Shown here: piece after piece, positions 1 through 36,051 of the stretch
Numbering within the stretch: position 1 is the stretch's first letter
How the letters are laid out: each line of letters starts with the position of its first letter
Source: a virus
Taxonomy: Duplodnaviria > Heunggongvirae > Uroviricota > Caudoviricetes
IMG/VR virus record: IMGVR_UViG_2579778871_000005
Length of the DNA stretch: 36,051 nucleotides
Reading direction: 5' to 3' (one strand)
Made by a program: the position numbers and the translations under genes
The notes under the pieces: generated by a model
Told to the model about the DNA's origin: nothing
Database searches by the model: none
The model's input: only the letters and a program-made list of their open reading frames with translations

Positions 1-258
1 TCAGGCGTCCAGATTTTCTTTCACCCATGCAGCAAAATCGGTATAGCCGCCGATATGTTGCTGATCGACAAAAATCTGCGGCACGGTTTCTACGGGTTTA
101 CCTGCCTTTTGTTGTAGATCTTCTTTAGTGATCCCTTCCGCACGAATATCTACATACTGATACTGAAAATCATCGCGTTCATTGCTCAATTTCTCAGCCA
201 GATCTTTTGCACGCACACAGTAAGGGCAACCCGAACGACCAAAAATAACGGTTTGCAT
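1..258 (-). CDS. grxA: Glutaredoxin 1 (host gene flanking the prophage)
   Basis: ORF 1..273 minus; product from the internal Met reads MQTVIFGRSGCPYCVRAKDL... with the CPYC active-site motif and matches my recollection of E. coli GrxA; ATG (plus-strand CAT) at 256-258. Confidence 0.9.
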   Translation of the reverse strand: MQTVIFGRSGCPYCVRAKDLAEKLSNERDDFQYQYVDIRAEGITKEDLQQKAGKPVETVPQIFVDQQHIGGYTDFAAWVKENLDA

Positions 259-498
259 TATTTCTCTCCTCATAGATTTATGCCTGTAATGATCACGCTA
301 AAATGTATTCGCTGAAAGTAGGTTTAACCTGTTGCATTAATTGCTAAAAGCTATAACTGTTAAACACAATACAGTGAAAAGTTTTAGACTGAAGGCTCAC
401 TTTGCAGAGGGAAGCTAAAGCCGCGCGCGATAAATCGGCGCTAAAAACGCAATAAATAGCAGGCGGCTTTCATTTCAGTATGTGTAACAGATTTTCTC

Positions 499-1221
499 TT
501 ATTTAGGGTAAGCCTGAACTCGGAACAACTTACTGTTAAGATGCTGACGCGCACGTTTATCCAAAAAGCGGATATAGCGGAACTGTTTATAACGATGTCT
601 CGTTGCTTTATCCAGATTTGCTCGAAGGTACTCTCCGCGTTTGCCACCACGAACTAGCGCCGTTCTACATATCTCATGGTAAAACTCACCATCCAATTCA
701 TAAAACGTAGAGAAATGGCTACCGATGTAGTCAAAATTTGCAGCCTGATACACTACGCCTGAACGGCCACAACGCTCATCCGCAAATGTTTGAACCCATT
801 TAACTTGTGGATAAAGAATGGAGATGAGCTTCAGTGAGTAAGCTAAGACACGACTTTCAGTATTGCGGGGCTGGCTGTCGTGAATCCACATTCGATTGAG
901 TTCCATATACTCCCGGTTGCCGGTCCCGAGTACCACTCGTGCGCCGCTGTTGGGGTTTAATGCATAACCGAACTGTAATACTCCAACCAAATTTCTCCCC
1001 GCAAATACCCCGAGATGCAAGTAACTGTTGTTAACAAACCGCCTGGAATAATGCTTATCTTGAATAATAGACCTGGCCAGCCAGCAACTGATGGTTTCTA
1101 CACGCAGTTCTGTGCAACCATATCCCACGATATCATTCTGATCCTTGATTACGCCGCGAGGGCTTAATACACGAGAAACCTTTTGAGCCATAATAACCTC
1201 TCGTCTGGCGCTCAAAGGCAC
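499..1221 (-). CDS. mom: Mom-like DNA modification protein (start may be the internal Met at 1191)
   Basis: 240-aa ORF containing [13 protein letters not shown], which matches the Mom motif I recall from phage Mu (..IYKAANFRYLG..); sits immediately downstream of, and overlapping, a Com-like zinc-finger ORF as in the Mu com-mom operon. Confidence 0.7.
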
Positions 1222-1333
1222 TCAATTCGTTTACAAACCCGCAGCGCGGGCATTTTATTTGCACCTCAATAACCTGCCCCTTGAATAGCAGTTTTGAGCA
1301 TTGCGTACATCTGACATGCATTTTGTCTGTCAT
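1133..1333 (-). CDS. com: Com-like zinc-finger translational regulator of mom
   Basis: Sub-ORF of 1133..1501 starting at ATG 1333 ([36 protein letters not shown]...), a CxxC...CxxC zinc ribbon resembling Mu Com (..IRCKNCNKLLFKA..IRCPRCK..); its 3' end overlaps the mom start. Confidence 0.55.
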
Positions 1334-1378
1334 TCTGCAAACCTTTTTCAGTATGTGAAAAACTGATAGGCTTACCGG

Positions 1379-1394
1379 ACTGATGGCCATCAGT
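1379..1394. promoter_or_regulatory. Perfect 16-bp palindrome ACTGATGGCCATCAGT upstream of com (candidate regulator binding site)
   Basis: Read directly from the sequence in the 145-bp gap between the stop at 1479 and the com start at 1333; a second inverted repeat CCAGAGTC..GACTCTGG lies at 1439-1466. Confidence 0.3.
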
Positions 1395-2554: not shown

Positions 2555-4164
2555 TAAATTCTGACGATACCAGAAGAACCATTCGATCCATTATTAAGAA
2601 CCCAGTCACCTAGATACCCCCGGTTACTGGCACTGGAGCTACCACCTGCACCACCTGCACCGAAGCCATTTGCATTAGATGGTAATGAACCAGCTATTAT
2701 CTCTGAACGTTCTAATGTGACATTCCCAGGGATTCCACCTTTACCTAAGATAGAATCACTCCCTCTTAGCCCTAGAGTTACATACTCTTCCTTACGCCCG
2801 CCTCCATTCCCATCAGAGGGGAGAAATCTTATTACATTTCCTCCTGTACACCCTGCTACACCTCCATCACCACCTGGTACATTCAGATATGCAAAAGAGG
2901 ATTGTCCTCCAGCGTTCCCGTTATAACCTATACCTTGTGAGCCGCTGCCTTTCGCACCTCCGCTACCGCCTACACCAACCATTACAGGTATCTGACTTTT
3001 TGGTGCAACATCAACATAACCAGCAATACATCCGGCAGCGATTCCCCCTGTGGAACAAACATTATTTGCTGATGAACCTCCGGCTCCGCCACCACCACCA
3101 CCAACAACCTCAACAAAGATCTGCGTCACCCCATCCGGTACAGTAAAAGTCCCATTAGCCGTAAAAAACTGATAATGGGAGTGGTTGGCTGGAGCTGCCG
3201 CACTTGCCTTGTCATACGCCGCCTTAACTGCGCTCGGCGTCGCCGCTTCCGTCGTGCTGTTACTATTCGTAGAGCTATTAAGCTTCACAACTCCTTTCTG
3301 TGCCGTCGTGGCATCCGGAACGTCGGTAATTTGATTCCAGGGGTGCGAATGATTTCCCGCCGCCTTACCATTCGCCAGGTCATACGCCGCCTTAACAGCA
3401 CTCGGTGTCGCTGCCTCTGTCGTATTGGTACTGTTCGTCGCACTATTAAGCTTCACAACCCCTTTCTGCGCCGTAGTGCCATCCGGCACCCCGGTAATAT
3501 CGCCCCACGGATGTTTATGCGCTTTATCAGCCCCAGCTTTTTCCAGTGCCTCATTCGCCTTATCCATCGCCGCCTTCACCGCCTTCGGCGTTGCTGCCTG
3601 CGTTTCCAGCGTGCTATTGGTTGAGCTGTTAAGCTGCGTAAAGCCTTTCTGCGTCAGCGTCGCGTCCGGGTGATTATGCGATCTTTCGTGCTCTTCAATA
3701 CTGGAGTCCACATAATCTACCGTTGCCATCACCAGTGATGGATCAACCATCAATGTCACAGCCGCCGCGTTCGTCACCTCCATCACCGCACGGATCACAA
3801 TCTGCTTACTGGCCCCGGCAGGCAGCTTCGGCTTATAGGTTTCCGGGAACTTGCCAATGGCGATCAGTACGCCGTCCTTATCCAGCAATCCCACCTCGCG
3901 GATATACCAGCCGCCGACTGATTCCGGCAGTACCGCCTCGGCAATCACCCACGCCGGGTTTTCCGGGGCGATTTTCAGAGTATTCAGTGGCCCGCGCCAG
4001 ACTTCACGCACCACCTTTGTCTGGCTCTCTTTCGGTTCGGCATACTGCCCACCGCCGTCGCCAACGACCATTGTTTGCAGCACTATCTGCTTTTGTTCCG
4101 CCAACGCCGCCGCGATTTTCGCGCGGCCAGCGGCGGTTAAAATGGTAAAAAATTCACTCGCCAT
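2548..4164 (-). CDS. Tail fiber protein
   Basis: 538-aa ORF; N-terminus MASEFFTILTAAGRAKIAAA... resembles the conserved N-terminal domain of Mu S / P2 H-type fibers; three in-frame tandem repeats (..AQKGVVKLNSSTNS..TTEAATPSAVKAAYD..HSHPW..ITDVPD..) and a Gly-rich C-terminal domain. Confidence 0.8.
   Translation of the reverse strand: MASEFFTILTAAGRAKIAAALAEQKQIVLQTMVVGDGGGQYAEPKESQTKVVREVWRGPLNTLKIAPENPAWVIAEAVLPESVGGWYIREVGLLDKDGVLIAIGKFPETYKPKLPAGASKQIVIRAVMEVTNAAAVTLMVDPSLVMATVDYVDSSIEEHERSHNHPDATLTQKGFTQLNSSTNSTLETQAATPKAVKAAMDKANEALEKAGADKAHKHPWGDITGVPDGTTAQKGVVKLNSATNSTNTTEAATPSAVKAAYDLANGKAAGNHSHPWNQITDVPDATTAQKGVVKLNSSTNSNSTTEAATPSAVKAAYDKASAAAPANHSHYQFFTANGTFTVPDGVTQIFVEVVGGGGGGAGGSSANNVCSTGGIAAGCIAGYVDVAPKSQIPVMVGVGGSGGAKGSGSQGIGYNGNAGGQSSFAYLNVPGGDGGVAGCTGGNVIRFLPSDGNGGGRKEEYVTLGLRGSDSILGKGGIPGNVTLERSEIIAGSLPSNANGFGAGGAGGSSSASNRGYLGDWVLNNGSNGSSGIVRIYW
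3169..3663. repeat. Three tandem ~140-bp in-frame repeats inside the tail fiber gene
   Basis: Near-identical DNA blocks (for example gccgccttaac.gc.ctcgg.gtcgc.gc.tc.gtcgt...ctattaagcttcacaac.cctttctg.gccgt) recur at about 3230-3330 and 3375-3480, mirrored by the protein repeats. Confidence 0.7.
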
Positions 4165-4883
4165 TACTCCTCCGGGTAAACAGTGACAAACTCAATACTC
4201 CAGCAGCCCGCTCCAACACTCATAACGCTGGTCTGCTCAACATTGCCATGCAGCGGAGGCAACACCGTTACCACCTCTGCACTCAGACACTCCGTCGCCA
4301 GATAAACCGCAGACGACTGACTCACGCTCTCCGCAATCCACGGCAGAACGGTAGCGATCTCGCCGCCCTGAACCGCGCTGGCGATAACGGGGATCTGGCT
4401 CTGGTTAATCAGCCAGATAGTCAGCATCTCCAGCTTTGAGCGGACGTTCTTGTACTCATGGATCAGCACAATCAGCGCGTTAAATTCATCCTCAGTCAGC
4501 CCGCGCGTCTCAAGCGTCACACCCATGCGGAAAAAGTACGGCTTGCCGCCATACTCAAACCACTCGCTGATATCGCCGTCCAGTGCCAGAATCTTCAGTA
4601 CCTGACGCACAGCCCACGGCGTACCGCGATAGCGGTGCAGCTCAATGGCCTGCTTGATCAGATCGCGTTTCTGCCGCTCATTACGGGCGAACAGCCAGCC
4701 TTCCAGCCCCTGAACATGAAACTGTTCTGCCAGCGACGGTAGCGCCGTGGCGTCCACCAGATCCACTAGGTAAATCAGCAGCACAGTCAGATCGAGTTGT
4801 GCGAAGCGTTCGGCGGCAAGATTTGCCAGCCGGGTAAAGCGTTCATCCCCGGCCAGCGGCGGTTGAAGCGGTAACTTATCCAT
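4164..4883 (-). CDS. Tail/baseplate protein, P2 gpI-like
   Basis: 239-aa ORF between the baseplate J-like and tail fiber genes, the gpI position in P2-type tails; overlapping start/stop with neighbours. Confidence 0.65.
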   Translation of the reverse strand: MDKLPLQPPLAGDERFTRLANLAAERFAQLDLTVLLIYLVDLVDATALPSLAEQFHVQGLEGWLFARNERQKRDLIKQAIELHRYRGTPWAVRQVLKILALDGDISEWFEYGGKPYFFRMGVTLETRGLTEDEFNALIVLIHEYKNVRSKLEMLTIWLINQSQIPVIASAVQGGEIATVLPWIAESVSQSSAVYLATECLSAEVVTVLPPLHGNVEQTSVMSVGAGCWSIEFVTVYPEE

Positions 4884-8199: not shown

Positions 8200-9182
8200 T
8201 ACACGCTCCTTGTAATGATTGCTGCCGCCAGCCTGCTAACGGCAGGGGAGCACTCTTCCATCAGCGACTGGCCGTTGCGCACAACGTCCAGTGCCTGCGA
8301 AAAAACAGTGGTGAAATTGTCCAGACTGATATCCTCAAACCCGGTCAGGGTGCCGCTGATTTCGTCATAAATCTGCGAGGCGTATTGCCCGACGTCGCCA
8401 AGAACATCTGCAAGTACGCTGCCGTCTGTGATGTCCGTCAGCGTTTGCAGCACATCGTCCAGGGGGGACAATACATCGTCGAGAATATCTTCCAGCGGAG
8501 AGACCACCTCGTCCAGCATCTCCTCCAGCGGTCCCAGTACATCATCAACAAGATCCCCGACTTGTTCCATTGCTTCTCCAATGGCGTCCTCGACCTGTCC
8601 CGCCATATCTTCTGCCCACGACACCGCCTCATCGAACGCCTGCGCAGCGGCATCCAGCGCATCCGATACCTCACCCAGCCCGTCAGTAATATCGCCCAGG
8701 TCTTCGAACATATCGCTGCCAGAAAAACTGTCATCAGCATCGTCAGACCATGAGTCAATATTCGGATCATCCCCGGACACCGCAGGTGGCGTCAGGGGAT
8801 TTTTCGGATCGCCGATGTACTCCTTCAGCGACAGCTCCGCACTTAACGCCTGCACATTGCCGAGGCCATCGGTCTGCTGGCTGGTTGCCCGGATATCGGT
8901 GATCACAAACCAGCCGCGATAGTCACCGTTGCCGAACACCAGCGCCAGCGCCTGATGTGCCACCATCGCGTCACGCAGCCGCGCCAGTTCAACATCCGGC
9001 TGGCAATAGTGTTCGTGGAACACCAGGCTGATACTCACTTCATCCAGCTTTTCGCCGATAAACTGCAACCCCGGCTTACCTTCGATACGTGAGTGCTCGG
9101 CATAATCCATGCCAAACGACGCATCAAAACCGTCCCAGTAGGTCACCACCTCAAACTCAATATCACCCAGTACGGCAAACAT
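8199..9182 (-). CDS. Tail protein, P2 gpU-like N-terminal domain with acidic repeat-rich C-terminus
   Basis: 327-aa ORF immediately downstream of the tape measure gene; C-terminal half made of degenerate acidic repeats (DxxxDVLSPLEDxLDxV). Confidence 0.5.
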   Translation of the reverse strand: MFAVLGDIEFEVVTYWDGFDASFGMDYAEHSRIEGKPGLQFIGEKLDEVSISLVFHEHYCQPDVELARLRDAMVAHQALALVFGNGDYRGWFVITDIRATSQQTDGLGNVQALSAELSLKEYIGDPKNPLTPPAVSGDDPNIDSWSDDADDSFSGSDMFEDLGDITDGLGEVSDALDAAAQAFDEAVSWAEDMAGQVEDAIGEAMEQVGDLVDDVLGPLEEMLDEVVSPLEDILDDVLSPLDDVLQTLTDITDGSVLADVLGDVGQYASQIYDEISGTLTGFEDISLDNFTTVFSQALDVVRNGQSLMEECSPAVSRLAAAIITRSV

Positions 9183-25195: not shown

Positions 25196-26404
25196 TTAAG
25201 GAGTGGGCTTATTGCTCAAGTGATGCCACCATGACATCACTTTTGTAACCAAGGTATTCCATGTTTCAGGGTATGTGCAGTATAGGTAAATTAATCCTGT
25301 CGATATAATAGCGACAACAAGGAACATAATGATAAACCAGAACGCAATAACCTGACGGCAAAGACGTTTACGTACAGAGCAAAAGATACTATCAATGTCA
25401 TTTTTTATTGATGCATACTTTTTATCAACCTGAGTCTTTTTATGTCGAAGTTCTTCTTTGATAGCGGTTAACGTCTGTAACTGGTTGAACAAAGTCAACA
25501 TAACCAACGTAGCAAAAACAAAGGCCCCTAAAAAAACTGCGCTATTGATAATGGTTTGATAGACATCACCACTTGCTTTCTTGATTTGTGTCGCGACGAT
25601 AATGGTTGCGACTGGGATACCCAGTATCTGGTTTTGGATATCTGAAAAGACTTTGTGGATACGTCCCATTTCTTCAACTTTGGCGGTTCTAAGTTCATCC
25701 AGAACCTTTTCGTATGAGAACCCAGAAGTGAAGAGGCGATAACCCTTATCGAACTCAACTTTTAATTTTTCAATGTTCTTCAGTGCATACTCAAAGACTT
25801 TATTGTTTTCCGTTTCCTGACCGATTAACTGGATGCTTTCAATTAAAAGGGAGAGTTTCTGCTCTTTGTGTGTGTCGTCAGAAAACTGCTGAATGAGTTC
25901 ATCGAGTGTCGTTTTATCAAGATTTTCTACGGTTTCTGCACTGTAACGTATAGGTAATTTAAATACATCGGCACGGAAAAAAACGCATTCATATGCTCTG
26001 GTATCAAAGTATGCCGACTTTTCTTTAAGCAGGCGCAGAAATGTTAAGATAGTGCGGTAGTTTTCAATTACGGATGTTGGCGCATCCGAACTATAAAATT
26101 GGCTGTCGATCAGGTAGTATCGGGAAGGTTCCTCGCTTTGGTGTTTTGGCGACTTTAACAAAGCCGCCAAATTACGGCATAGCAGACCTAGCTTTGTCTT
26201 TGGGGCGTTCACAAATAGCGACACCTGCTGACCAGGTTCTACTTCGCCTTGTGCCAGAGAGATCCCATATGTATCAGTGTCCTCAAGCAAGGTGTTGAGC
26301 AACTCGCAGGATTCTGGGGTAAGCACCAGCGTACCTTCGGCCATATCGTTACCGAAAGTAATCTGCCTGTACAATCCCACCAGCTGCTCAAAACTGATAC
26401 TCAC
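25196..26404 (-). CDS. Cargo protein of unknown function with ~330-aa soluble N-terminal region and two C-terminal TM helices
   Basis: 402-aa ORF; its start overlaps the stop of the NdpA-like gene (ATGA at 26401-26404); C-terminal hydrophobic helices (..TIINSAVFLGAFVFATLVMLTLF.. and ..VIAFWFIIMFLVVAIISTGLIYLY..); AT-richer than the phage backbone by eye. Confidence 0.75.
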   Translation of the reverse strand: MSISFEQLVGLYRQITFGNDMAEGTLVLTPESCELLNTLLEDTDTYGISLAQGEVEPGQQVSLFVNAPKTKLGLLCRNLAALLKSPKHQSEEPSRYYLIDSQFYSSDAPTSVIENYRTILTFLRLLKEKSAYFDTRAYECVFFRADVFKLPIRYSAETVENLDKTTLDELIQQFSDDTHKEQKLSLLIESIQLIGQETENNKVFEYALKNIEKLKVEFDKGYRLFTSGFSYEKVLDELRTAKVEEMGRIHKVFSDIQNQILGIPVATIIVATQIKKASGDVYQTIINSAVFLGAFVFATLVMLTLFNQLQTLTAIKEELRHKKTQVDKKYASIKNDIDSIFCSVRKRLCRQVIAFWFIIMFLVVAIISTGLIYLYCTYPETWNTLVTKVMSWWHHLSNKPTP

Positions 26405-27432
26405 TCCTCAACCTCATCCAGTATCTCTTCCCTGAAGCTATCAGGAATATTCCTTAGAATGATTACATCCTGATCACGATTATACTCAATTGAACCATCT
26501 ACAAGACCGACACGATCAAACTTTAGTTCCCAATAATTAGACTTTCCTTTAAAGGAAATGATTCCTTTTAGTACGCGTCCATCAGGGACAAAACCATCCG
26601 ACAGTTCCAGTTCTTGGTTGGCTAGTTTAGTCGAGAGTAGTTCTGGTTCTTGTGGCCAGACCGCATTCACAAAGGTTGTCAGATCTACAGGCTCACCATC
26701 TTTGCTCAGTTGCTTCAAATGGTCATGTGCAGTTTGCAGAAAAGCCTCTCGATGTGCGGGGTCAAGCCCTTGCTCAGTCGCAAATTCTTTCAACGCATCC
26801 CGCAATTTCTCCGTTTCACGCTTGGCGATCAAAACATCGTTACAGCCCAGGAATTGCTTAAAGTAACCAGATACAGCATTACTCCCCTTCAGGAAACTTA
26901 TATAACGTTCGGCACCTGATTGCCAGGACGTAATGTCAATACGCCCCGCCACACGTAGCTTGTCGATATCAAGGTAGACACTTTCTTGGATAGCAAAGGC
27001 ATCGTTAACCGCAGTACCCGTCGTGGGACTTAACATGGCAACTAAAATATGCTCGTGTTGATTCATCGTAATGTGGGCGAATAGAACATAGCCACCAGTA
27101 GCGAGTGGTGTTGTTTGAATTCGAGATTCCAAATGACGAATCATACGGCAGGAGCTACGGTAAAAATTATCAGGATGCTCCTGAGCTAAATAGTCTGATA
27201 CAATTGTTTGCATCGGGTAATTATCTGGGTCATCTTCAAAATGGCCATAGCCTTTCCCCATTCGCCCTGCATATTTCCCACAGATATCATCGATTAAGCG
27301 TTGTGATGCTGCGGTGACACCGCTCTCTGTTGGACTTAGCTGTAAGGATGTCACCCCATGCGGTTCTTTATCTAAAAGATGAACAACCACATGATTTACA
27401 ACGATTGCATTTGCAGGTTCATTTGCTGGCAT
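26401..27432 (-). CDS. NdpA/YejK-like nucleoid-associated protein homolog (diverged)
   Basis: ORF 26401..27483 (first codon GTG); likely ATG at 27432. Segment GGYVLFAHITMNQHEHILVAMLSP...RIDITSWQSGAERYISFLKGSNAVSGYFKQFLG aligns with E. coli YejK as I recall it ([24 protein letters not shown]...[37 protein letters not shown]). Confidence 0.65.
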   Translation of the reverse strand: MPANEPANAIVVNHVVVHLLDKEPHGVTSLQLSPTESGVTAASQRLIDDICGKYAGRMGKGYGHFEDDPDNYPMQTIVSDYLAQEHPDNFYRSSCRMIRHLESRIQTTPLATGGYVLFAHITMNQHEHILVAMLSPTTGTAVNDAFAIQESVYLDIDKLRVAGRIDITSWQSGAERYISFLKGSNAVSGYFKQFLGCNDVLIAKRETEKLRDALKEFATEQGLDPAHREAFLQTAHDHLKQLSKDGEPVDLTTFVNAVWPQEPELLSTKLANQELELSDGFVPDGRVLKGIISFKGKSNYWELKFDRVGLVDGSIEYNRDQDVIILRNIPDSFREEILDEVEE

Positions 27433-27509
27433 AGAATCTGAAACCTTCAGTAGAGTTAGATAGTAAATGCATGCTGTCTGCACGCTTTTTGGTTTTGTTT
27501 ACAACATGT

Positions 27510-28031
27510 TTAATCTTGCCTTGGACACATCCAGTAATCCTCATCCGGCTCTGGCGAGTAAACCATCAGGCACCCTTCGCGCGGCGGCTTCTTATCAGAA
27601 GTCATAGGAACTTTTTCTTTATCCAGTTTCACAACCAGATCCCCACCCGGTACATCCGCTTTATCGAAGCAGACAGACTGGCAGGCAGATTTTGAAATCT
27701 TTACTTCGTGGGTATTATTGGAGATGAAAAGGAAGCAGGTATGACCGGAGGCAGTGTAATTACCTGGTATGTCGTTTTTATCTTTTACGTGAAACTCGAC
27801 CGTCGTAACGGGACGTTGGCTATCATCGTAGACCTTGAACGAATCGAAGTTTGTCGCGTACTTATCCAGACCTGGGCACTGTTGACGAATAAACGGCAGT
27901 TCACGTTTTACTACCGGATTATCGGACTCAACCTTAAATGTAGTAGGGACAGGAGATGGTGCGGCATTATCATCACCACACCCAACCATTAGCAGAGCAC
28001 TTACCCCCAGAGGTAAAAGAAAGTGCTTCAT
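27510..28031 (-). CDS. Cys-rich lipoprotein of unknown function (possible exclusion protein)
   Basis: 173-aa ORF with signal peptide and lipobox (MKHFLLPLGVSALLMVGC); AAGGA ribosome-binding site before the ATG at 28031; same strand as and downstream of the repressor. Confidence 0.7.
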   Translation of the reverse strand: MKHFLLPLGVSALLMVGCGDDNAAPSPVPTTFKVESDNPVVKRELPFIRQQCPGLDKYATNFDSFKVYDDSQRPVTTVEFHVKDKNDIPGNYTASGHTCFLFISNNTHEVKISKSACQSVCFDKADVPGGDLVVKLDKEKVPMTSDKKPPREGCLMVYSPEPDEDYWMCPRQD

Positions 28032-28143: not shown

Positions 28144-28494
28144 CTATCCGGCTTGTTTATCGGGTCGGGCCTGCGTGAGCAATCGGCCCATTTCAAGAAT
28201 CGCCCTCCGTTGTTCGGCGCTCATATCGTCAAAGGCCTCTAACAACCTTTGTTTTTCTGGTGAAAAATTTTCTACCTTTTCTGCAACCATTGATGGATTA
28301 CGTTGCCCAGTAACTACATAGAGAACATCTAATCCAACCTTTGCCCAAGCCTCTAAAACCGCACTATTAGGGAACGAAGCGCCTTTTTCCCAATTGATTT
28401 GGGAGTGCTTACCTGCGCTAGCCAAAGCAGCGAAATCAGTCTGGTTGTAACCCAACCGTTCACGTTCCTTTTTAATGCGTTCACCTTGGTTCAT
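28144..28494 (-). CDS. Prophage repressor, XRE-family helix-turn-helix protein
   Basis: 116-aa ORF with N-terminal HTH-like segment (..IKKERERLGYNQTDFAALASAGKHSQINWEKG..); divergent from the early operon across a repeat-containing intergenic region; no peptidase domain. Confidence 0.7.
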   Translation of the reverse strand: MNQGERIKKERERLGYNQTDFAALASAGKHSQINWEKGASFPNSAVLEAWAKVGLDVLYVVTGQRNPSMVAEKVENFSPEKQRLLEAFDDMSAEQRRAILEMGRLLTQARPDKQAG

Positions 28495-28589: not shown

Positions 28590-28775
28590 ATGACAACCGA
28601 TCAGGTCAAAGCCCTCTTTCGTCAGCGCGGCGTTACCTTTACCCGCTGGGCAGAAGATAACGGTTACACCCGCAATGAGGTGTATCGCGTGCTTAATGGT
28701 CAGTCAAAAGCCAACTACGGAAAGGCGCATGAGATTGCCGTCAAACTTGGCCTTAAGTCCGGCATCGCCGCCTAG
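28590..28775 (+). CDS. Ner/Cro-like small DNA-binding protein (first early gene)
   Basis: 61-aa ORF opening the rightward operon opposite the repressor; HTH-like pattern (..RQRGVTFTRWAEDNGYTRNEVYRVLNG..). Confidence 0.5.
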   Translation: MTTDQVKALFRQRGVTFTRWAEDNGYTRNEVYRVLNGQSKANYGKAHEIAVKLGLKSGIAA

Positions 28776-28836
28776 ATTTTACAGTAAGTGTAACAGCGTT
28801 TCACATACAGAAAAGAGGCAACACAGGATAATCGTT

Positions 28837-29076
28837 ATGAAACCTACCGATTTAACCCCCGGCCAGCGCGTACTGATTACACCAGAGCTTGGCCCGAAAA
28901 CCCCGCTTCACGGTACTTTTCTCCGCCGCGTTCCGCGCCAGTGTGGTCGGGCGGCTTACAGCGTTTTTCGCATTGATGAATTTGTCGAGCAGAACGGGCC
29001 AGACGATAAAGGAGACACCCCGATGTCGGATTCCTGCATTTCCCGTCGGGTACAACCACTGGAGGTGCGTACATGA
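28837..29076 (+). CDS. Hypothetical early protein
   Basis: ORF 28675..29076; likely ATG at 28837 (MKPTDLTPGQRVLITPELGP...); stop overlaps the next start. Confidence 0.4.
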   Translation: MKPTDLTPGQRVLITPELGPKTPLHGTFLRRVPRQCGRAAYSVFRIDEFVEQNGPDDKGDTPMSDSCISRRVQPLEVRT

Positions 29077-29369
29077 AGGCTTCTACCTCCGGCGCACGCA
29101 TCCTTCGCGTACTCAAAGCCCTGAAAGGCTACTCGCTCACCGGGCTGTCCAATGGCGAACTAGCGGCGGCGTTGCATGAATCCCCGGCCAATATCACTCG
29201 TGCCGCTGACACTCTGATCGAAGAGGGCCTGGTACAACGGCTGGAAAATGGGCGCTTTGCCATGAGCATGGCGATGCTACAAATCGCCCACGCTCATGCG
29301 ACAGAAGTCACCCGCGCTCAGGACAGACTAAAAGAAATGAATCAACGCCTGCTGGCTGGCAGTCGATAA
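29073..29369 (+). CDS. Winged-helix DNA-binding protein, putative early regulator
   Basis: 98-aa ORF (..ILRVLKALKGYSLTGLSNGELAAALHESPANITRAADTLIEEGLVQR..), a pattern typical of winged-helix transcription factors. Confidence 0.45.
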   Translation: MKASTSGARILRVLKALKGYSLTGLSNGELAAALHESPANITRAADTLIEEGLVQRLENGRFAMSMAMLQIAHAHATEVTRAQDRLKEMNQRLLAGSR

Positions 29370-29379
29370 GGAGTAAGCA

Positions 29380-30330
29380 ATGGCACGTCAAAAATCACAA
29401 CCCGCCGAACTGGTGCCGGATGCGCCGCTGGACGCCGAACTGAACGTCGGACTGAATGCGCTGGCGGAACACCGCATTGAGATTATGCAACAGTTCGGTG
29501 ACGGCCTGCCGTATGAGCGTGACCGCGTGGTGCATGAGGCACGGTTTTATATGTCGCAGAGCGCCGAGGCAATGCTGGAAGCGGGTAAGCGGCTGGTGAT
29601 ACTGAAAGAGAATGAACCGCATGGGGAGTTCACGGCAATTGTCACTGAACAGTTGGGGCTAGGTGACCGGGCTGCACGCCGTATGATGCAGGCGTCTATT
29701 AAGTACCTTTCACCTACGCTTGAGTCAAAACGGCCAACGTTGGCCGTTTTGGGTAAGGCTAAATTATTTGAACTGGTATCAGAGGATGACGAAGACCTTA
29801 CAGCATTAGCCGAAGGCGGCACCGTCGCTGGCCTGACACTGGACGACGTAGATCGCATGAGCTGCCGCGAACTCCGCGCCGCTCTGCGTGAAGCCCGCGA
29901 GGACGCCGACGCCCAGCGCCGCGTTCTGTCCGATAAGAATGACAAAATTGACAAACTCTCCACCCTGCTCGCCAAAAAGTCCCGAATCGCGCCGCCGCCC
30001 CCGGATGTAGAGGACGAGCAGTTGCGTAAGGAAGTCATGGCTATCGCCTTCGAAGCTGAAGCCATTATTCGCGGCAAGCTCTATGAGGCCTTCACCGTAT
30101 TGAATCAGCATCATTCGGAACTGGTTCAGACGCATCCCTACGCCTTTATGACGGGCCTGCTGTGTCAGATTGACAGCGCCACCACCTATCTGCGCGAAGA
30201 GTTTGGCCTTGCTGCTGAACCACGCAGTGACGCCGCGCCGGAGTGGGTAACAGACCCCACGCCAGAGATTGATCGCCCGGAATGGATGAATGCTTCAGAT
30301 TCAGAACCTGTTCAGGCGGATTGTATATGA
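29380..30330 (+). CDS. DUF3102-like early protein
   Basis: 316-aa ORF directly upstream of the transposase; motif ..GKRLVILKENEPHGEFTAIVTEQLGLGDRAARRMMQAS.. matches the pattern I associate with DUF3102 proteins of Mu-like phages. Confidence 0.55.
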   Translation: MARQKSQPAELVPDAPLDAELNVGLNALAEHRIEIMQQFGDGLPYERDRVVHEARFYMSQSAEAMLEAGKRLVILKENEPHGEFTAIVTEQLGLGDRAARRMMQASIKYLSPTLESKRPTLAVLGKAKLFELVSEDDEDLTALAEGGTVAGLTLDDVDRMSCRELRAALREAREDADAQRRVLSDKNDKIDKLSTLLAKKSRIAPPPPDVEDEQLRKEVMAIAFEAEAIIRGKLYEAFTVLNQHHSELVQTHPYAFMTGLLCQIDSATTYLREEFGLAAEPRSDAAPEWVTDPTPEIDRPEWMNASDSEPVQADCI

Positions 30331-32072
30331 GCGCCGTCATGACCGAACGCTTAGTTGCTTTTGCTCAGGCTGCGCGGCAGGCCGGGCATGGTACACGAGG
30401 CGCAATCTATGCTGCCGCCTGCGCGGAGTTGGGCCTTTCCCGCGCCACGCTGTTACGCAAAATCAAGGAAGTCGCCGTGACTGATAATCGTAAGCGCAGA
30501 ACAGACGCAGGGAAAACCGCGCTGACCCGCGACGAGGCGGTGATGATATCCGCGACACTGATGGAAGCCACTCGTAAGAACGGCAAGCGCCTGTATTCCG
30601 TCGCCGACGCCGTGGAAATGTTACGCGCCAACAACGAAATTGACGCCGGGCGACTGGATGAAGAATCCGGTGAATGGATGCCGTTGTCGGAAAGCACCAT
30701 TATCCGGGCGCTACGCGGCTACGGCCTGCACCCGGATCAGCTCAGTCAGCCCGCGCCGGTGACGGAACTCGCCAGCCTGCACCCCAATCACGTCTGGGAA
30801 ATCGACGCCTCGCTCTGCACGTTGTACTACCTCAGCAATGGACAGCATGGCTTACAGGTGATGGACAGTTCGAAGTTCTACAAGAACAAGCCGAAGAATC
30901 TGCAACGTATCGCCAGTGACCGGGTATGGAGTTACGAACTGACCGACCACACCAGCGGCTGGATCTACGTTGAATACGTGATGGGCGCGGAGTCTGGCGA
31001 GAATCTTTGCTCAGTGCTGATAAACGCCATGCAGGAGCGCGGCGGCGCGGATGTGCTTCACGGCGTACCGCATATGCTGTATCTCGACCCCGGCTCGGCT
31101 AACACCGCGGCCATGACCAAAAACCTCTGCCGTTCGCTGGGCATTGACGTGGTAGCACATAAAGCCCACAACGCCCGCGCCACCGGGCAGGTGGAAAAGG
31201 CGCGTGACATTATCGAGCGCCGCTTTGAACCGGGGCTGAAGTTCCAACCGGTTCATAGTCTGGAGGAACTGAACGCCAAAGCGAAGCTGTGGCGGCAGCA
31301 CTTCAACGCCACCGCCATTCACACTCGCCACGGCAAGTCGCGTAGTAACGTCTGGATGACCATCACCACGCAACAGCTTATCAAAGCGCCATCGGTGGAT
31401 GTATGCCGCGAACTGGCCGTTGCCGCGCCGGAAAGCCGCAAGGTAACACCAAAGCTGCGCGTCTCCTTCCGGGGCGCTGAATATGATGTGTCGTCGGTGC
31501 CGGGTGTGATGGTGGGTGAGAAACTGATGATCACCCGCAATCCGTGGCGCACTGACGCTGCGCAGGTAGTTCTTATCGGCGACGATGGCCATGAGTATTT
31601 TCATCTGGTGGAAGAAGTTCGTAAGAATGAATACGGCTTTGCCCAGGATGCTGCGGTACTGGGCCAGAACCATAAGCGCCACGCCGATACACCAGCGCAG
31701 ACTGCTGCTAAACAAATTGAGCAGATTGTTACCGAAACGGATAACGAGACTGACGCAGCCGCTGCGCGTAAAGCGAAGGCGCTGCCGTTCGGCGGCAGGC
31801 TCGACCCGTACAAACCGATCACCGACAGCGAACTCCCCGCGTTCCTACCGCGTCGCGGCCAGGATTCTCTGGTACGCGCCCCACGTATTGAGGAAAGGCT
31901 TTTAACTCACGTTGAAGCTGCGAAGGCGCTGAAAGCGCGTCTGCCGGAATGGAGCGTAGCAGTGTATCAGGAACTGGTGAAACGCTGGCCAGAAGGCGTG
32001 GCGGAAGAAGAACTGGACGCCGCCGCGCAGCAGCTTACCGCCCGAGTGCAACTGAACGTAGTCGGTGGTTAA
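30327..32072 (+). CDS. DDE transposase (Mu A-like function, integrase-core fold)
   Basis: ORF 30282..32072; ATG at 30327 overlaps the upstream stop (ATGA); candidate catalytic residues in ..VWEIDASLC.., ..LYLDPGSANT.. and a downstream Glu; followed by an AAA+ ATPase gene, the transposase/ATPase pairing of Mu, IS21 and Tn7-type elements. Confidence 0.8.
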   Translation: MSAVMTERLVAFAQAARQAGHGTRGAIYAAACAELGLSRATLLRKIKEVAVTDNRKRRTDAGKTALTRDEAVMISATLMEATRKNGKRLYSVADAVEMLRANNEIDAGRLDEESGEWMPLSESTIIRALRGYGLHPDQLSQPAPVTELASLHPNHVWEIDASLCTLYYLSNGQHGLQVMDSSKFYKNKPKNLQRIASDRVWSYELTDHTSGWIYVEYVMGAESGENLCSVLINAMQERGGADVLHGVPHMLYLDPGSANTAAMTKNLCRSLGIDVVAHKAHNARATGQVEKARDIIERRFEPGLKFQPVHSLEELNAKAKLWRQHFNATAIHTRHGKSRSNVWMTITTQQLIKAPSVDVCRELAVAAPESRKVTPKLRVSFRGAEYDVSSVPGVMVGEKLMITRNPWRTDAAQVVLIGDDGHEYFHLVEEVRKNEYGFAQDAAVLGQNHKRHADTPAQTAAKQIEQIVTETDNETDAAAARKAKALPFGGRLDPYKPITDSELPAFLPRRGQDSLVRAPRIEERLLTHVEAAKALKARLPEWSVAVYQELVKRWPEGVAEEELDAAAQQLTARVQLNVVGG

Positions 32073-32081
32073 GGGGGAGTT

Positions 32082-33206
32082 ATGCAGATTAAACAACAGT
32101 TGCGCCAGCGTGGCATCACTCAGGCAGCAGTAGCACAGGCTACCGGGGTTTCCGCAGCGGTTATCGCGCAGATGGTTAATCACGGCCTGTGGCCGAAAAC
32201 AGAAGAACTACGGGAGCGCATCAGCGCATTTTTGGCAGAAAAAGGTATTGAACTGAAAGTGGGACAGGCAGCGGCCACTGCCTGCCCCGATACCGCATCC
32301 ACAAGGGACGAAAATATGTTACTGGCAAAACAGGTATTAAATCCAGCGGCGAAGAAACATTTTGGGCTGTTCCGCGACCCGTTCGCTGATGAAGTCATGC
32401 AGAGCGCGGACGATGTATTCACCACGCCGGATATCCGTTATGTGCGCGAGGCGCTGTACCAGACTGCGCGTCACGGCGGGTTTATTGCGGTGACAGGTGA
32501 ATCCGGCGCAGGGAAAACCACGCTGCGCCGTGACCTGGCTGACCGCATCAACCGCGAAAACGCGCCCGTTATCATCATCGAGCCGTATATCATCGCGATG
32601 GAAGACAACGACGCAAAGGGTAAAACCCTGAAAGCTGCCGCCATAGCAGAAGCCATCATCAACACCATCGCGCCGCTGGAGAACGTCAAACGCTCGCAGG
32701 AGGCGCGTTATCGCCAGTTGCACCGGGTGCTAAAGGAATCGGCCCGTGCCGGGTTCTCACATTGCCTTGTTATCGAAGAGGCGCACTCGCTGCCGGTGCC
32801 GACGCTCAAGCACCTGAAACGCTTCTTTGAGCTGGAAGATGGCTTTAAGAAACTGCTGTCGATAGTGCTGATTGGTCAGCCTGAACTGAAGCTGAAACTG
32901 TCCGAACGTAATCAGGAAGTGCGTGAAGTGGTTCAACGTTGCGAGGTTGTCGAACTGCTGCCGCTGGACAACTATCTGGAATCGTTTCTGGCGTTTAAAT
33001 TTCAGCGTGCCGGAAAAGGAGTTTCAGAGGTGCTGGATGATAGCGCCGCCGATGCTATCCGCGCCCGGCTGTGCAATTCATCCCGACGCGGTGACGTCAG
33101 TCTGCTGTACCCGCTGGCGCTGGGGAATCTGGTTATCGCTGCAATGAATCTGGCTGCTGATATCGGCGTACCCGTAGTGAATGCCGATGTGATTAAAGGA
33201 GTGTGA
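32082..33206 (+). CDS. Transposition ATPase (Mu B-like AAA+ protein) with N-terminal HTH
   Basis: 374-aa ORF; Walker A ..VTGESGAGKTTL.. and Walker B-like ..HCLVIEEAHSL..; N-terminal HTH-like segment (..LRQRGITQAAVAQATGVSAAVIAQMVN..). Confidence 0.8.
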   Translation: MQIKQQLRQRGITQAAVAQATGVSAAVIAQMVNHGLWPKTEELRERISAFLAEKGIELKVGQAAATACPDTASTRDENMLLAKQVLNPAAKKHFGLFRDPFADEVMQSADDVFTTPDIRYVREALYQTARHGGFIAVTGESGAGKTTLRRDLADRINRENAPVIIIEPYIIAMEDNDAKGKTLKAAAIAEAIINTIAPLENVKRSQEARYRQLHRVLKESARAGFSHCLVIEEAHSLPVPTLKHLKRFFELEDGFKKLLSIVLIGQPELKLKLSERNQEVREVVQRCEVVELLPLDNYLESFLAFKFQRAGKGVSEVLDDSAADAIRARLCNSSRRGDVSLLYPLALGNLVIAAMNLAADIGVPVVNADVIKGV

Positions 33207-33208
33207 AA

Positions 33209-33337
33209 ATGGTATTTCACAAATTAACCGGAAAGGACGTGATGCAATACCGCAAGATATCGCTGGCTGACCGTTTTGTATTATGGGCCAGCGCTATAAC
33301 TACACTGATTTTTATATTCATAGCCTTATTTAATTAA
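33209..33337 (+). CDS. Possible 42-aa single-TM peptide (below the ORF-track size cutoff)
   Basis: ATG at 33209 preceded by AAGGAG (33196-33201); translation MVFHKLTGKDVMQYRKISLADRFVLWASAITTLIFIFIALFN; lies in the 200-bp gap after the ATPase gene. Hand-translated. Confidence 0.3.
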   Translation: MVFHKLTGKDVMQYRKISLADRFVLWASAITTLIFIFIALFN

Positions 33338-33408
33338 TTCAGGTCGCAGAAAAATGCCGTCAACCCGGCAGGCTTCGCACACCCTGAAATCACCCTGGAG
33401 ACTATTTT

Positions 33409-34026
33409 ATGACTGAAAAAACTATCCCCGCAGGTTACTGGCAGGACGCCAAAGGTTGTCTGGTTCCCGAGTCTATGATCAAGCCCATTGACCGCGCACG
33501 CGATGCGCTGGTGAAGGAGATCGTCGCCGACGCAATGAAAATGAATGCTGAATTACTTGAGTTTAAAAACCGCTGTTTTGGCGATATACAGGCGTTTATT
33601 GATTTGTCCGTTGAACAATATGATGCCCGCCCCGGAGGCAAGAAAGGCAACATCACCCTGCATTCATTTGATGGTCGCTACAAGATCCAGCGCCAGATTG
33701 CCGAAAACATCGCCTTTGATGAACGGTTACAAGCCGCCCGTAACTTGATTGATGAGTGCCTGCATGAGTGGACGGCACAGGCCACGCCAGAGCTGAAGGT
33801 CATTGTGGAGAAAGCATTCGCAGAAGATAAAGAGGGCAACATCTCCACCGGGCGCGTACTGGCGCTGCGCCGCTATGAAATCACCGACCCGCGCTGGCTG
33901 AAGGCGATGGAGGCCATTGGCGAGTCGGTACAGGTGGTGAACTCAACAAGTTACGTGCGGGTTTATCAGCGCATCGGTGATAGCGATAAATACCAGCCCG
34001 TCGTGCTGAATATTGCGGGGGTGTGA
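33409..34026 (+). CDS. DUF3164-like early protein
   Basis: 205-aa ORF in the semi-essential early region; size and position match the DUF3164 proteins common in Mu-like phages; assignment by recollection. Confidence 0.5.
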   Translation: MTEKTIPAGYWQDAKGCLVPESMIKPIDRARDALVKEIVADAMKMNAELLEFKNRCFGDIQAFIDLSVEQYDARPGGKKGNITLHSFDGRYKIQRQIAENIAFDERLQAARNLIDECLHEWTAQATPELKVIVEKAFAEDKEGNISTGRVLALRRYEITDPRWLKAMEAIGESVQVVNSTSYVRVYQRIGDSDKYQPVVLNIAGV

Positions 34027-34027
34027 G

Positions 34028-34222
34028 ATGGCGACGATTAAATGTGTGTACTGCAAAAAAGAAGTCACTGAACTGGATTTTCAGCAGGCCAGCTTATTTC
34101 AGACTGATGAATATAAGGAGTGGTGTGTAAATTTAATTTTGCTCTGTCCGCACTGCGAGCAGGCTTATAACGCCTTTATTCCCACGATGGAATTAACCCC
34201 GGCAACGGAGGTAGGCGCATGA
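34028..34222 (+). CDS. Small zinc-ribbon protein
   Basis: ORF 34013..34222 (first codon TTG); ATG at 34028 gives MATIKCVYCKK...LLCPHCEQAY with a CxxC...CxxC arrangement. Confidence 0.45.
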   Translation: MATIKCVYCKKEVTELDFQQASLFQTDEYKEWCVNLILLCPHCEQAYNAFIPTMELTPATEVGA

Positions 34223-34497
34223 AAACGCTTATCTACCGTGCAGCCTTACTCAAGTGGGGGCCGGAGAAACAACTGGCGAAGCTGGCCGAGGAAGCAGCCG
34301 AACTCAGCGCCGCAGCCGCGCGTGGTTTGACAGGCTTCTGTGATGAAGCTGTGCTGGCGGAGGAGATTGCCGATGTGGAAATCATGATCGAACAGTTCCG
34401 GCAGAACGGTATGGACAAGCTAATCGATTATCGAAAAGCGAAAAAGCTGGCGCGGCTGGCAGAATGGTTGGGAGTAGTAAATGATGATGTTTGTTAA
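34219..34497 (+). CDS. MazG-like nucleotide pyrophosphohydrolase, putative
   Basis: 92-aa ORF with EExxE-type acidic motifs (..LAEEAAELSAAAARG.., ..EEIADVEIMIEQ..) characteristic of small all-alpha MazG-family proteins. Confidence 0.55.
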   Translation: MKTLIYRAALLKWGPEKQLAKLAEEAAELSAAAARGLTGFCDEAVLAEEIADVEIMIEQFRQNGMDKLIDYRKAKKLARLAEWLGVVNDDVC

Positions 34498-34774
34498 ATG
34501 CCCAGCCTGCGGGAAATATGCCGAGAAAGAAGTACCGTTTCGCATTGGCGACAAAGTGAGTTTTGCCTGGCAGCAAGTATCTATGAGCGCTCGTAACACT
34601 CGCATCAGAATAACGACAAAAACAGGGAAAATAACCAGCGTCAATAATGATTCAGCGGTTGTCCGTTCCCGTGGCAAGGATTACTGCCTCGATAAAAGCT
34701 GCATATCTCCAGCAAATGAACCATCGGTATTAACCGTAAGGATGGTTGGGATCTGCCAGTGTGCTGACGTGTAG
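34481..34774 (+). CDS. Hypothetical early protein with N-terminal CxxC
   Basis: 97-aa ORF (MMMFVKCPACGKYAEKEVPF...) overlapping the end of the MazG-like gene. Confidence 0.4.
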   Translation: MMMFVKCPACGKYAEKEVPFRIGDKVSFAWQQVSMSARNTRIRITTKTGKITSVNNDSAVVRSRGKDYCLDKSCISPANEPSVLTVRMVGICQCADV

Positions 34775-34828
34775 CCACATTGATCATCCGGCGGTTGTGC
34801 CTGTCATAACCGCCTCACGGAGGAATGA

Positions 34829-35233
34829 ATGAACAGAGCACAATTATTGCGGGTTATCCATGTTGCCCGGCGAGAGCTGCGACTGGATGAGGCTACGTAT
34901 CGACAATTACTCAAAACACACTGCGGCGGGGAATCATTACGGGTAATGAGCGACTCACAACTGGCTAAGGCTTTCGCTGTGATGAAAAAACAGGGCTTCA
35001 AAGTCACATCTAAAGAGCCTCCTTCCTATGATAAGCAGTCTGCGATGATCCGCGCATTATGGAAGGAACTGGCGTCCAGCGGTACGGTTAGAGATGGCAG
35101 TTTGTCAGCGTTAAATAAGTTCGTACAGCGCCAGACAGGTGTCGCCCGGCTTGAGTGGCTGAATAATCAACAGGCTAGCCAGGTGATTGAACAACTGAAA
35201 AAATGGCTGGCGCGTGTCGGGAGGAGAAGATGA
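34829..35233 (+). CDS. GemA-like protein (Mu gp16 family)
   Basis: 134-aa ORF; ..LLRVIHVARRELRLDEATYRQLLK..., the pattern I recall for GemA-family proteins, located immediately upstream of mor as in Mu; GGAGG before the ATG. Confidence 0.55.
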   Translation: MNRAQLLRVIHVARRELRLDEATYRQLLKTHCGGESLRVMSDSQLAKAFAVMKKQGFKVTSKEPPSYDKQSAMIRALWKELASSGTVRDGSLSALNKFVQRQTGVARLEWLNNQQASQVIEQLKKWLARVGRRR

Positions 35234-35610
35234 AAGAACCGCAACAGCCAGAAATCTTTGCTGACCTTGCGCACCATGTCGCGAGCACGTTGCAAGAAAT
35301 GGTTGGAATGGAAGATGATATAGCTGAACAAATTGCTGTAGCTGTTGCTAACCGCATGATGCAAGCATGGGGCGGGCAAACCATCTACCTGCCCAAAGGC
35401 ATGGTCTTCATGACATCGGCGCGGGACTACAAAATCTGGCAGGAGTGTGATGGACGCAACTACCGCGAACTGGCGAAGAAGTACAACCTGACTTTGCAGT
35501 GGATCTACAAAGTAGTGAAAAAGATCCAGCGTTCTGAAAGCGCCCGCCGACAACTCCCATTATTCTCTATCACTGATGAACCTGAAGCAGTAAAATCAAC
35601 CCTGAAGTGA
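35230..35610 (+). CDS. mor: Mor-like transcriptional activator (Mor/C family)
   Basis: ORF 35203..35610; ATG at 35230 overlaps the gemA-like stop (ATGA), preceded by GAGGAG; C-terminal ..RDYKIWQECDGRNYRELAKKYNLTLQWIYKVVKK.. matches the Mor/C-family HTH region. Confidence 0.65.
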   Translation: MKEPQQPEIFADLAHHVASTLQEMVGMEDDIAEQIAVAVANRMMQAWGGQTIYLPKGMVFMTSARDYKIWQECDGRNYRELAKKYNLTLQWIYKVVKKIQRSESARRQLPLFSITDEPEAVKSTLK

Positions 35611-35614
35611 TTAA

Positions 35615-35649
35615 TGAAACGAGGTCGTAATGATGTTGGCCTCGTTTCA
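35615..35649. repeat. Inverted repeat (10-bp arms TGAAACGAGG / CCTCGTTTCA, 15-bp spacer) at the prophage right end
   Basis: Read directly from the sequence; starts 5 nt after the mor stop; the right arm ends in CA at 35649 and overlaps the 9-bp word TTTCAGTAT also present at 473-481. Confidence 0.5.
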
Positions 35650-35763
35650 GTATCTGAAAAGCAATTACAGAAACCGTCCCGTTAAAACTCACCTCACCCC
35701 ATCTAATCCCATAATTATCGTGCAGATGATGGTGGGTTTATCTCACTTCTGATTAGGAAGCGT

Positions 35764-36051
35764 ATGCGCGCGATCGGTAAATTGCCTAAAGGCGTGTTGA
35801 TACTGGAATTTATCGGAATGATGCTACTGGCGGTGGCGCTGCTGTCGGTAAGCGACTCCCTGTCGCTGCCTGAGCCATTTTCTCGGCCAGAAGTGCAGAT
35901 TCTGATGATTTTTCTCGGTGTTTTGCTCATGCTTCCCGCTGCGGTGGTGGTTATTCTTCAGGTGGCAAAACGTCTTGCCCCACAGCTGATGAACCGTCCA
36001 CCGCAATATTCACGTTCAGAAAGAGAAAAAGATAATGACGCCAACCATTGA
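35764..36051 (+). CDS. ybjC: Small inner-membrane protein, host gene flanking the prophage (ybjC-like)
   Basis: 95-aa ORF with two hydrophobic helices, divergent from grxA as in the E. coli K-12 grxA/ybjC arrangement as I recall it; AGGAAG before the ATG. Confidence 0.65.
   Translation: MRAIGKLPKGVLILEFIGMMLLAVALLSVSDSLSLPEPFSRPEVQILMIFLGVLLMLPAAVVVILQVAKRLAPQLMNRPPQYSRSEREKDNDANH

Follow-up and report, generated by a model that had tools for sequence, protein, structure and literature searches.

The MazG protein of Escherichia coli consists of two tandem MazG domains in about 260 residues, and the integron-cassette enzyme iMazG is a tetramer that prefers dCTP and dATP. Two MazG-like enzymes encoded by phages have been tested and they disagree. 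That of a cyanophage prefers dGTP and dCTP and neither binds nor hydrolyses the alarmones (p)ppGpp (PMC6850273), whereas for Atd1, which is a MazG-like catalytic-domain protein from Pectobacterium phage PcCB7V, Ho et al. report hydrolysis of ppGpp with a Km of about 50 µM and no action on ribonucleoside triphosphates (rNTPs) or c-di-GMP (bioRxiv 10.1101/2022.06.09.495361). We have analysed the gene for a 92-residue MazG-like protein at 34219-34497 (+ strand) of IMG/VR record IMGVR_UViG_2579778871_000005, a stretch of 36,051 nucleotides that is referred to below as the window.

The gene is ordinary, a member of a very large phage family that annotation pipelines have already labelled. In RefSeq/PGAP the identical protein WP_032217867.1 is a 'nucleoside triphosphate pyrophosphohydrolase family protein', and the UniRef name of a 62%-identical Xenorhabdus homologue begins 'NTP pyrophosphohydrolase MazG putative catalytic...' (NTP, nucleoside triphosphate). 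By itself the correct recognition of one more member of an abundant annotated family is of little weight. The substrate preference of this small protein would bear on whether thousands of phage 'NTP pyrophosphohydrolase' genes encode pool sanitisers or anti-abortive-infection factors.

Superfamily membership and the acidic signature

The gene runs from ATG to TAA in 92 codons and encodes the protein MKTLIYRAALLKWGPEKQLAKLAEEAAELSAAAARGLTGFCDEAVLAEEIADVEIMIEQFRQNGMDKLIDYRKAKKLARLAEWLGVVNDDVC. The sequence-only reading that preceded this work had described a small protein with an EExxE motif. This proved correct, with the open reading frame (ORF) placed exactly at 34219-34497 and the motif present as E24-E25-A-A-E28 (codons at 34288-34302, + strand). 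The second half of the signature, E48-E49-I-A-D52 (34360-34374, + strand), which supplies the ExxD motif, is present too and had not been mentioned. Both metal-binding motifs are seen in the sequence itself, in an alignment of 114 diverged relatives and in alignments with the solved structures 5ie9 and 2gta. Their spacing (E25-x2-E28, 20 residues, E49-x2-D52) fits the superfamily signature, in which ExxE and ExxD stand on two antiparallel helices and are separated by about 12-28 residues.

A word-indexed search returned 70 homologues, mainly 'hypothetical protein' entries from Enterobacterales. A family profile constructed from 42 of these was run against every cluster representative (clusters at 50% identity) and matched those of 17,612 clusters at E ≤ 1e-3, the number at the stricter limit of E ≤ 1e-10 being 9,493; among the 150 family representatives listed, 107 are no longer than 115 residues. 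Residues G14, Q18, E24, E25, E28 and D52 are invariant across the 114 diverged relatives, and A9, L29, E49, A51, V53, I55, M56, Q59, K76, R79 and L80 are conserved in at least 90% of them. The ratio of non-synonymous to synonymous substitution (dN/dS; Nei-Gojobori method, pairs with unsaturated dS) lies between 0.16 and 0.27 against six relatives. Given the numbers of homologues, the invariant residues and the low dN/dS, neither the ORF nor the motif is due to chance; the gene is real and under purifying selection, and the signature formed by E25, E28, E49 and D52 is intact and strongly constrained.

The protein matches PHROG 2245, 'nucleoside triphosphate pyrophosphohydrolase', over residues 2-88 (E = 1.6e-24). 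In Pfam it scores 20.4 bits with PRA-PH (PF01503; cut-off 21.3) and has no match to MazG above threshold, and its NCBIfam matches, which are of HisE type, are weak and far under the cut-offs. When the 114 relatives were scanned singly, 49 matched PF03819 (MazG) at E < 0.01 and the sole other recurrent family was PRA-PH, found in eight; a family protein with three repeats, P0071, reaches 33.8 bits with PF03819 (cut-off 22). The family assignment made in the sequence-only reading is correct.

Searched against PDB sequences, the family profile found Bacillus BcMazG (5ie9, E = 0.0036), YpjD (2gta, E = 0.033) and the integron-encoded iMazG (2q73 and 2q5z, E = 0.043 and 0.079), together with HisE (1yvw) and SSO3215 (1vmg). 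In the profile alignments both acidic motifs are in register with those of 5ie9 and 2gta. The highest-ranked PDB matches of the profile, designed coiled coils and a STAS-domain protein, were set aside as compositional, arising from Glu/Ala-rich helices, and a carboxylesterase, the only PDB match of the single protein by phmmer, was discarded as spurious. An AlphaFold2 model calculated from the alignment (predicted local distance difference test score, pLDDT, 91.7) has two long helices, 2-37 and 43-83. The ten best matches in BFVD, which holds predicted viral structures, are all phage 'nucleoside triphosphate pyrophosphohydrolase' entries, with template-modelling (TM) scores of up to 0.87 and root-mean-square deviations down to 1.1 Å. 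The predicted fold is all-helical, like that of solved superfamily members.

The window protein is well supported as a member of the all-α NTP pyrophosphohydrolase (MazG-like) superfamily, in a divergent minimal single-domain form, and we consider it highly probable that the protein is an enzyme of this class. Three related assignments were rejected. A canonical two-domain bacterial MazG is ruled out by the single 92-residue domain. HisE, or phosphoribosyl-ATP pyrophosphatase, is ruled out by the score with TIGR03188 (21.3 bits; cut-off 42.7), by the score with PF01503 just under its cut-off and by the context of a phage early operon. Dimeric dUTPase (PF08761) was not matched by model or structure.

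The early operon of a BcepMu-like prophage

A single BcepMu-like transposable prophage occupies window positions ~450-35755, having inserted into the intergenic region between grxA and ybjC. Genomes with an empty site align to window 1-449 and 35756-36051, and there is no obvious 5-bp target duplication at the empty-site junctions (449/35756). A Mu-like left end considered at about window 304 (TGTATTCG...) is wrong, since the empty-site genomes show host sequence to about 449. Two complete E. coli genomes, those of strains A35 and OkiPb01694, match the window at 100% identity, and the MazG-like gene with its prophage occurs in two of 5,426 complete E. coli genomes. A megablast search of the region against isolated phages gave no match; at the protein level the isolated phages yielded only four BcepMu-like records, all of them 'hypothetical' or unannotated. 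A homologue is found in the same slot in Escherichia phage PhiKM (classified as Bcepmuvirus) and in the Klebsiella 'KP12' clone.

The minus strand carries the late genes, the lysis genes and Mom/Com, as well as the repressor gene (28144-28494). The early operon runs in the opposite direction (28590-35610, + strand; delineated from Pfam and from the PGAP annotation of the identical genome stretch) and comprises, in order, a ner-like gene, a MarR-like gene, a gene for a DUF3102 protein, the DDE transposase, a MuB-like AAA+ ATPase, DUF3164, a zinc ribbon, the MazG-like gene, a 97-residue ORF, GemA and Mor. The gene had earlier been placed among the early genes, and this is where it lies, between transposase/MuB-like/DUF3164 and GemA-Mor, on the same strand and with no + strand terminator-like site within 33200-35800. 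The single promoter-like match in that interval (35003-35032) is inside gemA, downstream of the MazG-like gene.

A Shine-Dalgarno sequence, GGAGG, can be read at 34207-34211 (+ strand), 7 nt 5' of the ATG. The start codon shares ATGA with the TGA of the preceding 64-residue ORF, and the 3' end of the gene overlaps the next ORF (34481-34774) by 17 nt. Such overlap and close packing of ORFs are usual in phage operons with translational coupling. The ribosome-binding site, the coupled starts, the strand shared from transposase to Mor, the lack of a terminator-like site in the interval searched and the downstream position of the sole promoter-like match all argue for early co-expression. Because it is in the early operon, the MazG-like gene should be made on infection or induction and repressed in the lysogen. 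Antisense ORFs at 34233-34677 were without any support and were disregarded, and no Rfam family matched anywhere in the window.

We examined the surroundings of relatives in viral genomes, taking the 80 best IMG/VR loci that encode one. GemA lies downstream of the relative in 56 loci and Mor in 53, and a MuB-like gene is present in 34 and DUF3164 in 29. These neighbours, and the same slot in related phages, place the MazG-like gene in the 'semi-essential early region' of transposable phages of this type, where it is a regular accessory gene. In a sister clade of Mu-like phages the MazG-like protein is larger, about 165 residues, and its gene is mostly directly 3' of DUF3164 (L015-L025 and L043-L047, at about 3980-4477 in each); the proteins of this length (P0096, P0114, P0141, P0188 and P0199) share, at the C terminus, a conserved helical extension of about 70 residues.

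Both immediate neighbours are small. Upstream, the ORF coupled to the MazG-like gene through ATGA (34028-34222, + strand; phrog_3401) encodes a 64-residue CxxC...CxxC zinc ribbon, a possible partner. A homologue of it precedes the MazG-like gene in 36 of the 80 viral loci, plus L002 and L008, with Serratia and Klebsiella relatives among those that have it; it is absent from PhiKM and from the non-Mu loci examined. In six of the 150 family representatives the MazG-like domain has a CxxC...CxxC module joined to its N or C terminus. With one lineage and six fusions we reject the association as a general rule, and small zinc ribbons are common in phage early regions; a functional pairing of the two proteins is possible. 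Downstream, the 97-residue ORF (34481-34774, + strand; phrog_3728) has several Cys pairs. It is conserved in only two of the 80 related loci and this slot is therefore variable.

Other features of the prophage are recorded here. The MuB-like AAA+ gene (32082-33206, + strand) is intact in the window and in OkiPb01694 and is frameshifted in strain A35 (L001, 4068-4988), and a tail-gene fragment at window ~8745-9182 is incomplete in OkiPb01694 according to PGAP; the prophage may therefore be partly defective. At its far end, adjoining grxA, a Mom-family adenine methylcarbamoylation gene and the Com regulator occupy window 499-1390 (- strand; PGAP, identical genome). Between the lysis genes and the repressor lies a three-gene cassette (25196-28031, - strand) that encodes a 401-residue protein, an NA37-type nucleoid-associated protein (Pfam, E = 6e-73) and a 172-residue protein, and which is a possible moron for lysogenic conversion or defence. 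In KP12 and PhiKM the corresponding region has a DNA adenine methylase gene, adjoining the start of the early operon. PADLOC gave no match for the MazG-like gene, for its neighbours or for the cassette beside the repressor.

Substrate and physiological role

By analogy with the established chemistry of the superfamily, which guides what we propose for oligomeric state, activity, phosphate contacts and, above all, substrate, the protein would form helical bundles of two or four chains, as solved relatives do, with the carboxylates of E25/E28 and E49/D52 holding Mg2+. Hydrolysis would take place at the α-β phosphoanhydride bond of a nucleoside 5'-triphosphate and release the nucleoside monophosphate and pyrophosphate. 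K76 and R79, which are conserved and lie on the last helix, would contact the phosphates. Its role may be to edit the deoxynucleoside triphosphate (dNTP) pool during replicative transposition, either by removing non-canonical dNTPs (dUTP, oxidised or deaminated) or by trimming one canonical dNTP.

We favour dNTP-pool editing on account of the replication genes that accompany the family, its extreme spread and the preference of the cyanophage MazG for dGTP and dCTP, with no binding or hydrolysis of (p)ppGpp. Distant relatives sit in the replication/recombination modules of unrelated phages, beside a VapE-like primase-helicase (eight loci), RecU (ten loci), DnaB/Toprim or a DEAD-box helicase; in one locus the company is SSB, DnaB, RusA and a DNA methyltransferase. 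As the physiological role, pool editing is put forward tentatively, at a little short of even chances; the combination of enzyme class and pool-editing role we judge to be somewhat probable. In gut-phage contigs a DUF6378 protein is encoded just upstream of the MazG-like gene in six loci (L076, L077 and four others; for example L077, 2627-3019), alongside RecU and the VapE-like primase-helicase. The DUF6378 representative has a pattern, K..R ... D..D..GY, which by eye may resemble other nucleotide-pyrophosphatase-like domains.

The sequence-only reading had cited proposals that phage MazG homologues reset host (p)ppGpp or nucleotide pools, and had named this protein a candidate counter-defence or host-takeover factor. 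An alarmone hydrolase of this kind would act at an early stage of lytic growth, destroying (p)ppGpp or a similar alarmone and so blocking the stringent response and the activation of toxins downstream of abortive-infection systems, as has been reported for Atd1. The precedent is mixed, positive for Atd1 and negative for the cyanophage enzyme, and the proposal is speculative. Atd1 is reported to hydrolyse ppGpp and to protect against TIR-STING and retron-TIR (bioRxiv 10.1101/2022.06.09.495361), the presumed product of its gene, QQG33500.1 (86 residues), is equally small with the same two motifs, and the window gene is expressed early. The presumed Atd1 nevertheless belongs to phrog_6408 rather than phrog_2245; BLASTP finds no similarity between it and the window protein, and hhalign against the family profile aligns only 31 columns (P = 0.014), a likeness at the level of the motifs. 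With the cyanophage MazG there is neither binding nor hydrolysis of (p)ppGpp (PMC6850273), and in most of the loci examined the relatives keep company with replication and not anti-defence genes. The negative PADLOC search also counts against an anti-defence role, but is weakly informative since that library is one of defence proteins. We regard an alarmone hydrolase as unlikely. In a broader form of the proposal phrog_2245 proteins (90-100 residues) would be general early counter-defence enzymes against alarmones or defence-generated nucleotides and not housekeeping dNTP sanitisers. Those of enterobacterial BcepMu-like phages might then work together with the coupled zinc ribbon as a pair, an association that finds an echo in the sporadic zinc-ribbon fusions elsewhere; this too appears improbable.

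The substrate might instead be a nucleotide made by host defence or linked to DNA modification, the enzyme destroying toxic analogues or deaminated dNTPs, or removing one canonical dNTP in favour of a modified base in the manner of dCTPases and MazZ. MazZ-type enzymes supply 2-aminoadenine synthesis. In one locus (L005) the relative has a large N6/N4 DNA methyltransferase directly on one side and a PAPS-reductase-like gene directly on the other, a Lar restriction-alleviation gene is close by and SSB, DnaB and RusA are upstream, and phage 7-deazaguanine clusters contain MazG/dUTPase-like genes (PMC10516641). The prophage itself carries Mom/Com. No requirement of Mom for an NTP pyrophosphatase is known, genes of base-modification pathways flank the gene neither in the window nor in the 56 Mu-like loci, and the distribution of the family is much too broad for a specialised role in modification, so that we give this explanation a rather small chance. 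A smaller one still attaches to a mainly non-catalytic role, in which the protein would bind a partner, for instance a regulator from the host or a satellite, or the zinc-ribbon protein with which it is co-translated. The dimeric all-α dUTPases of staphylococcal phages do bind the Stl repressor. Strict conservation of the four metal-binding carboxylates in very distant relatives, however, speaks for selection of catalysis, and the zinc-ribbon neighbour is restricted to one lineage, being missing from PhiKM and the non-Mu loci.

Comparison with known systems

Of the solved structures, BcMazG (5IE9) and YpjD (2GTA) give the best genuine matches to the sequence profile, and both motifs align with those of the window protein residue for residue. 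They differ from it in being encoded by chromosomal housekeeping genes, in their longer N-terminal helix (103-119 residues in all) and in sharing less than 25% identity. The integron-cassette iMazG (Vibrio DAT722; PDB entries 2Q5Z and 2Q73) is alike at the superfamily level only. E. coli MazG (PDB entry 3CRA) has a solved chain of 239 residues and belongs to the mazEFG operon, whereas the window protein is one 92-residue domain from a phage early operon.

The MazG of cyanophage S-PM2 is, like the window protein, a phage-encoded pyrophosphohydrolase of the MazG family, and was long assumed to reset (p)ppGpp. It is the enzyme for which a preference for dGTP and dCTP, with no binding or hydrolysis of (p)ppGpp, was reported (PMC6850273).

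Near the nucleotidyltransferase gene of PcCB7V (genome MW367417.1) there is a single MazG-clan gene, that for QQG33500.1, annotated 'phosphoribosyl-ATP pyrophosphatase', and this is presumably Atd1. Like the window protein it is minimal, single-domain and phage-encoded, has both ExxE and ExxD, and matches PRA-PH just short of significance. In contrast, it falls in phrog_6408 (the window protein in phrog_2245), its genome is that of a lytic member of the Vequintavirinae, and its gene adjoins a nucleotidyltransferase. We therefore do not carry the activity of Atd1 over to the window protein. Since the presumed Atd1 gene is of a different family, Atd1 illustrates what minimal phage MazG-like enzymes are capable of and not the role of phrog_2245.
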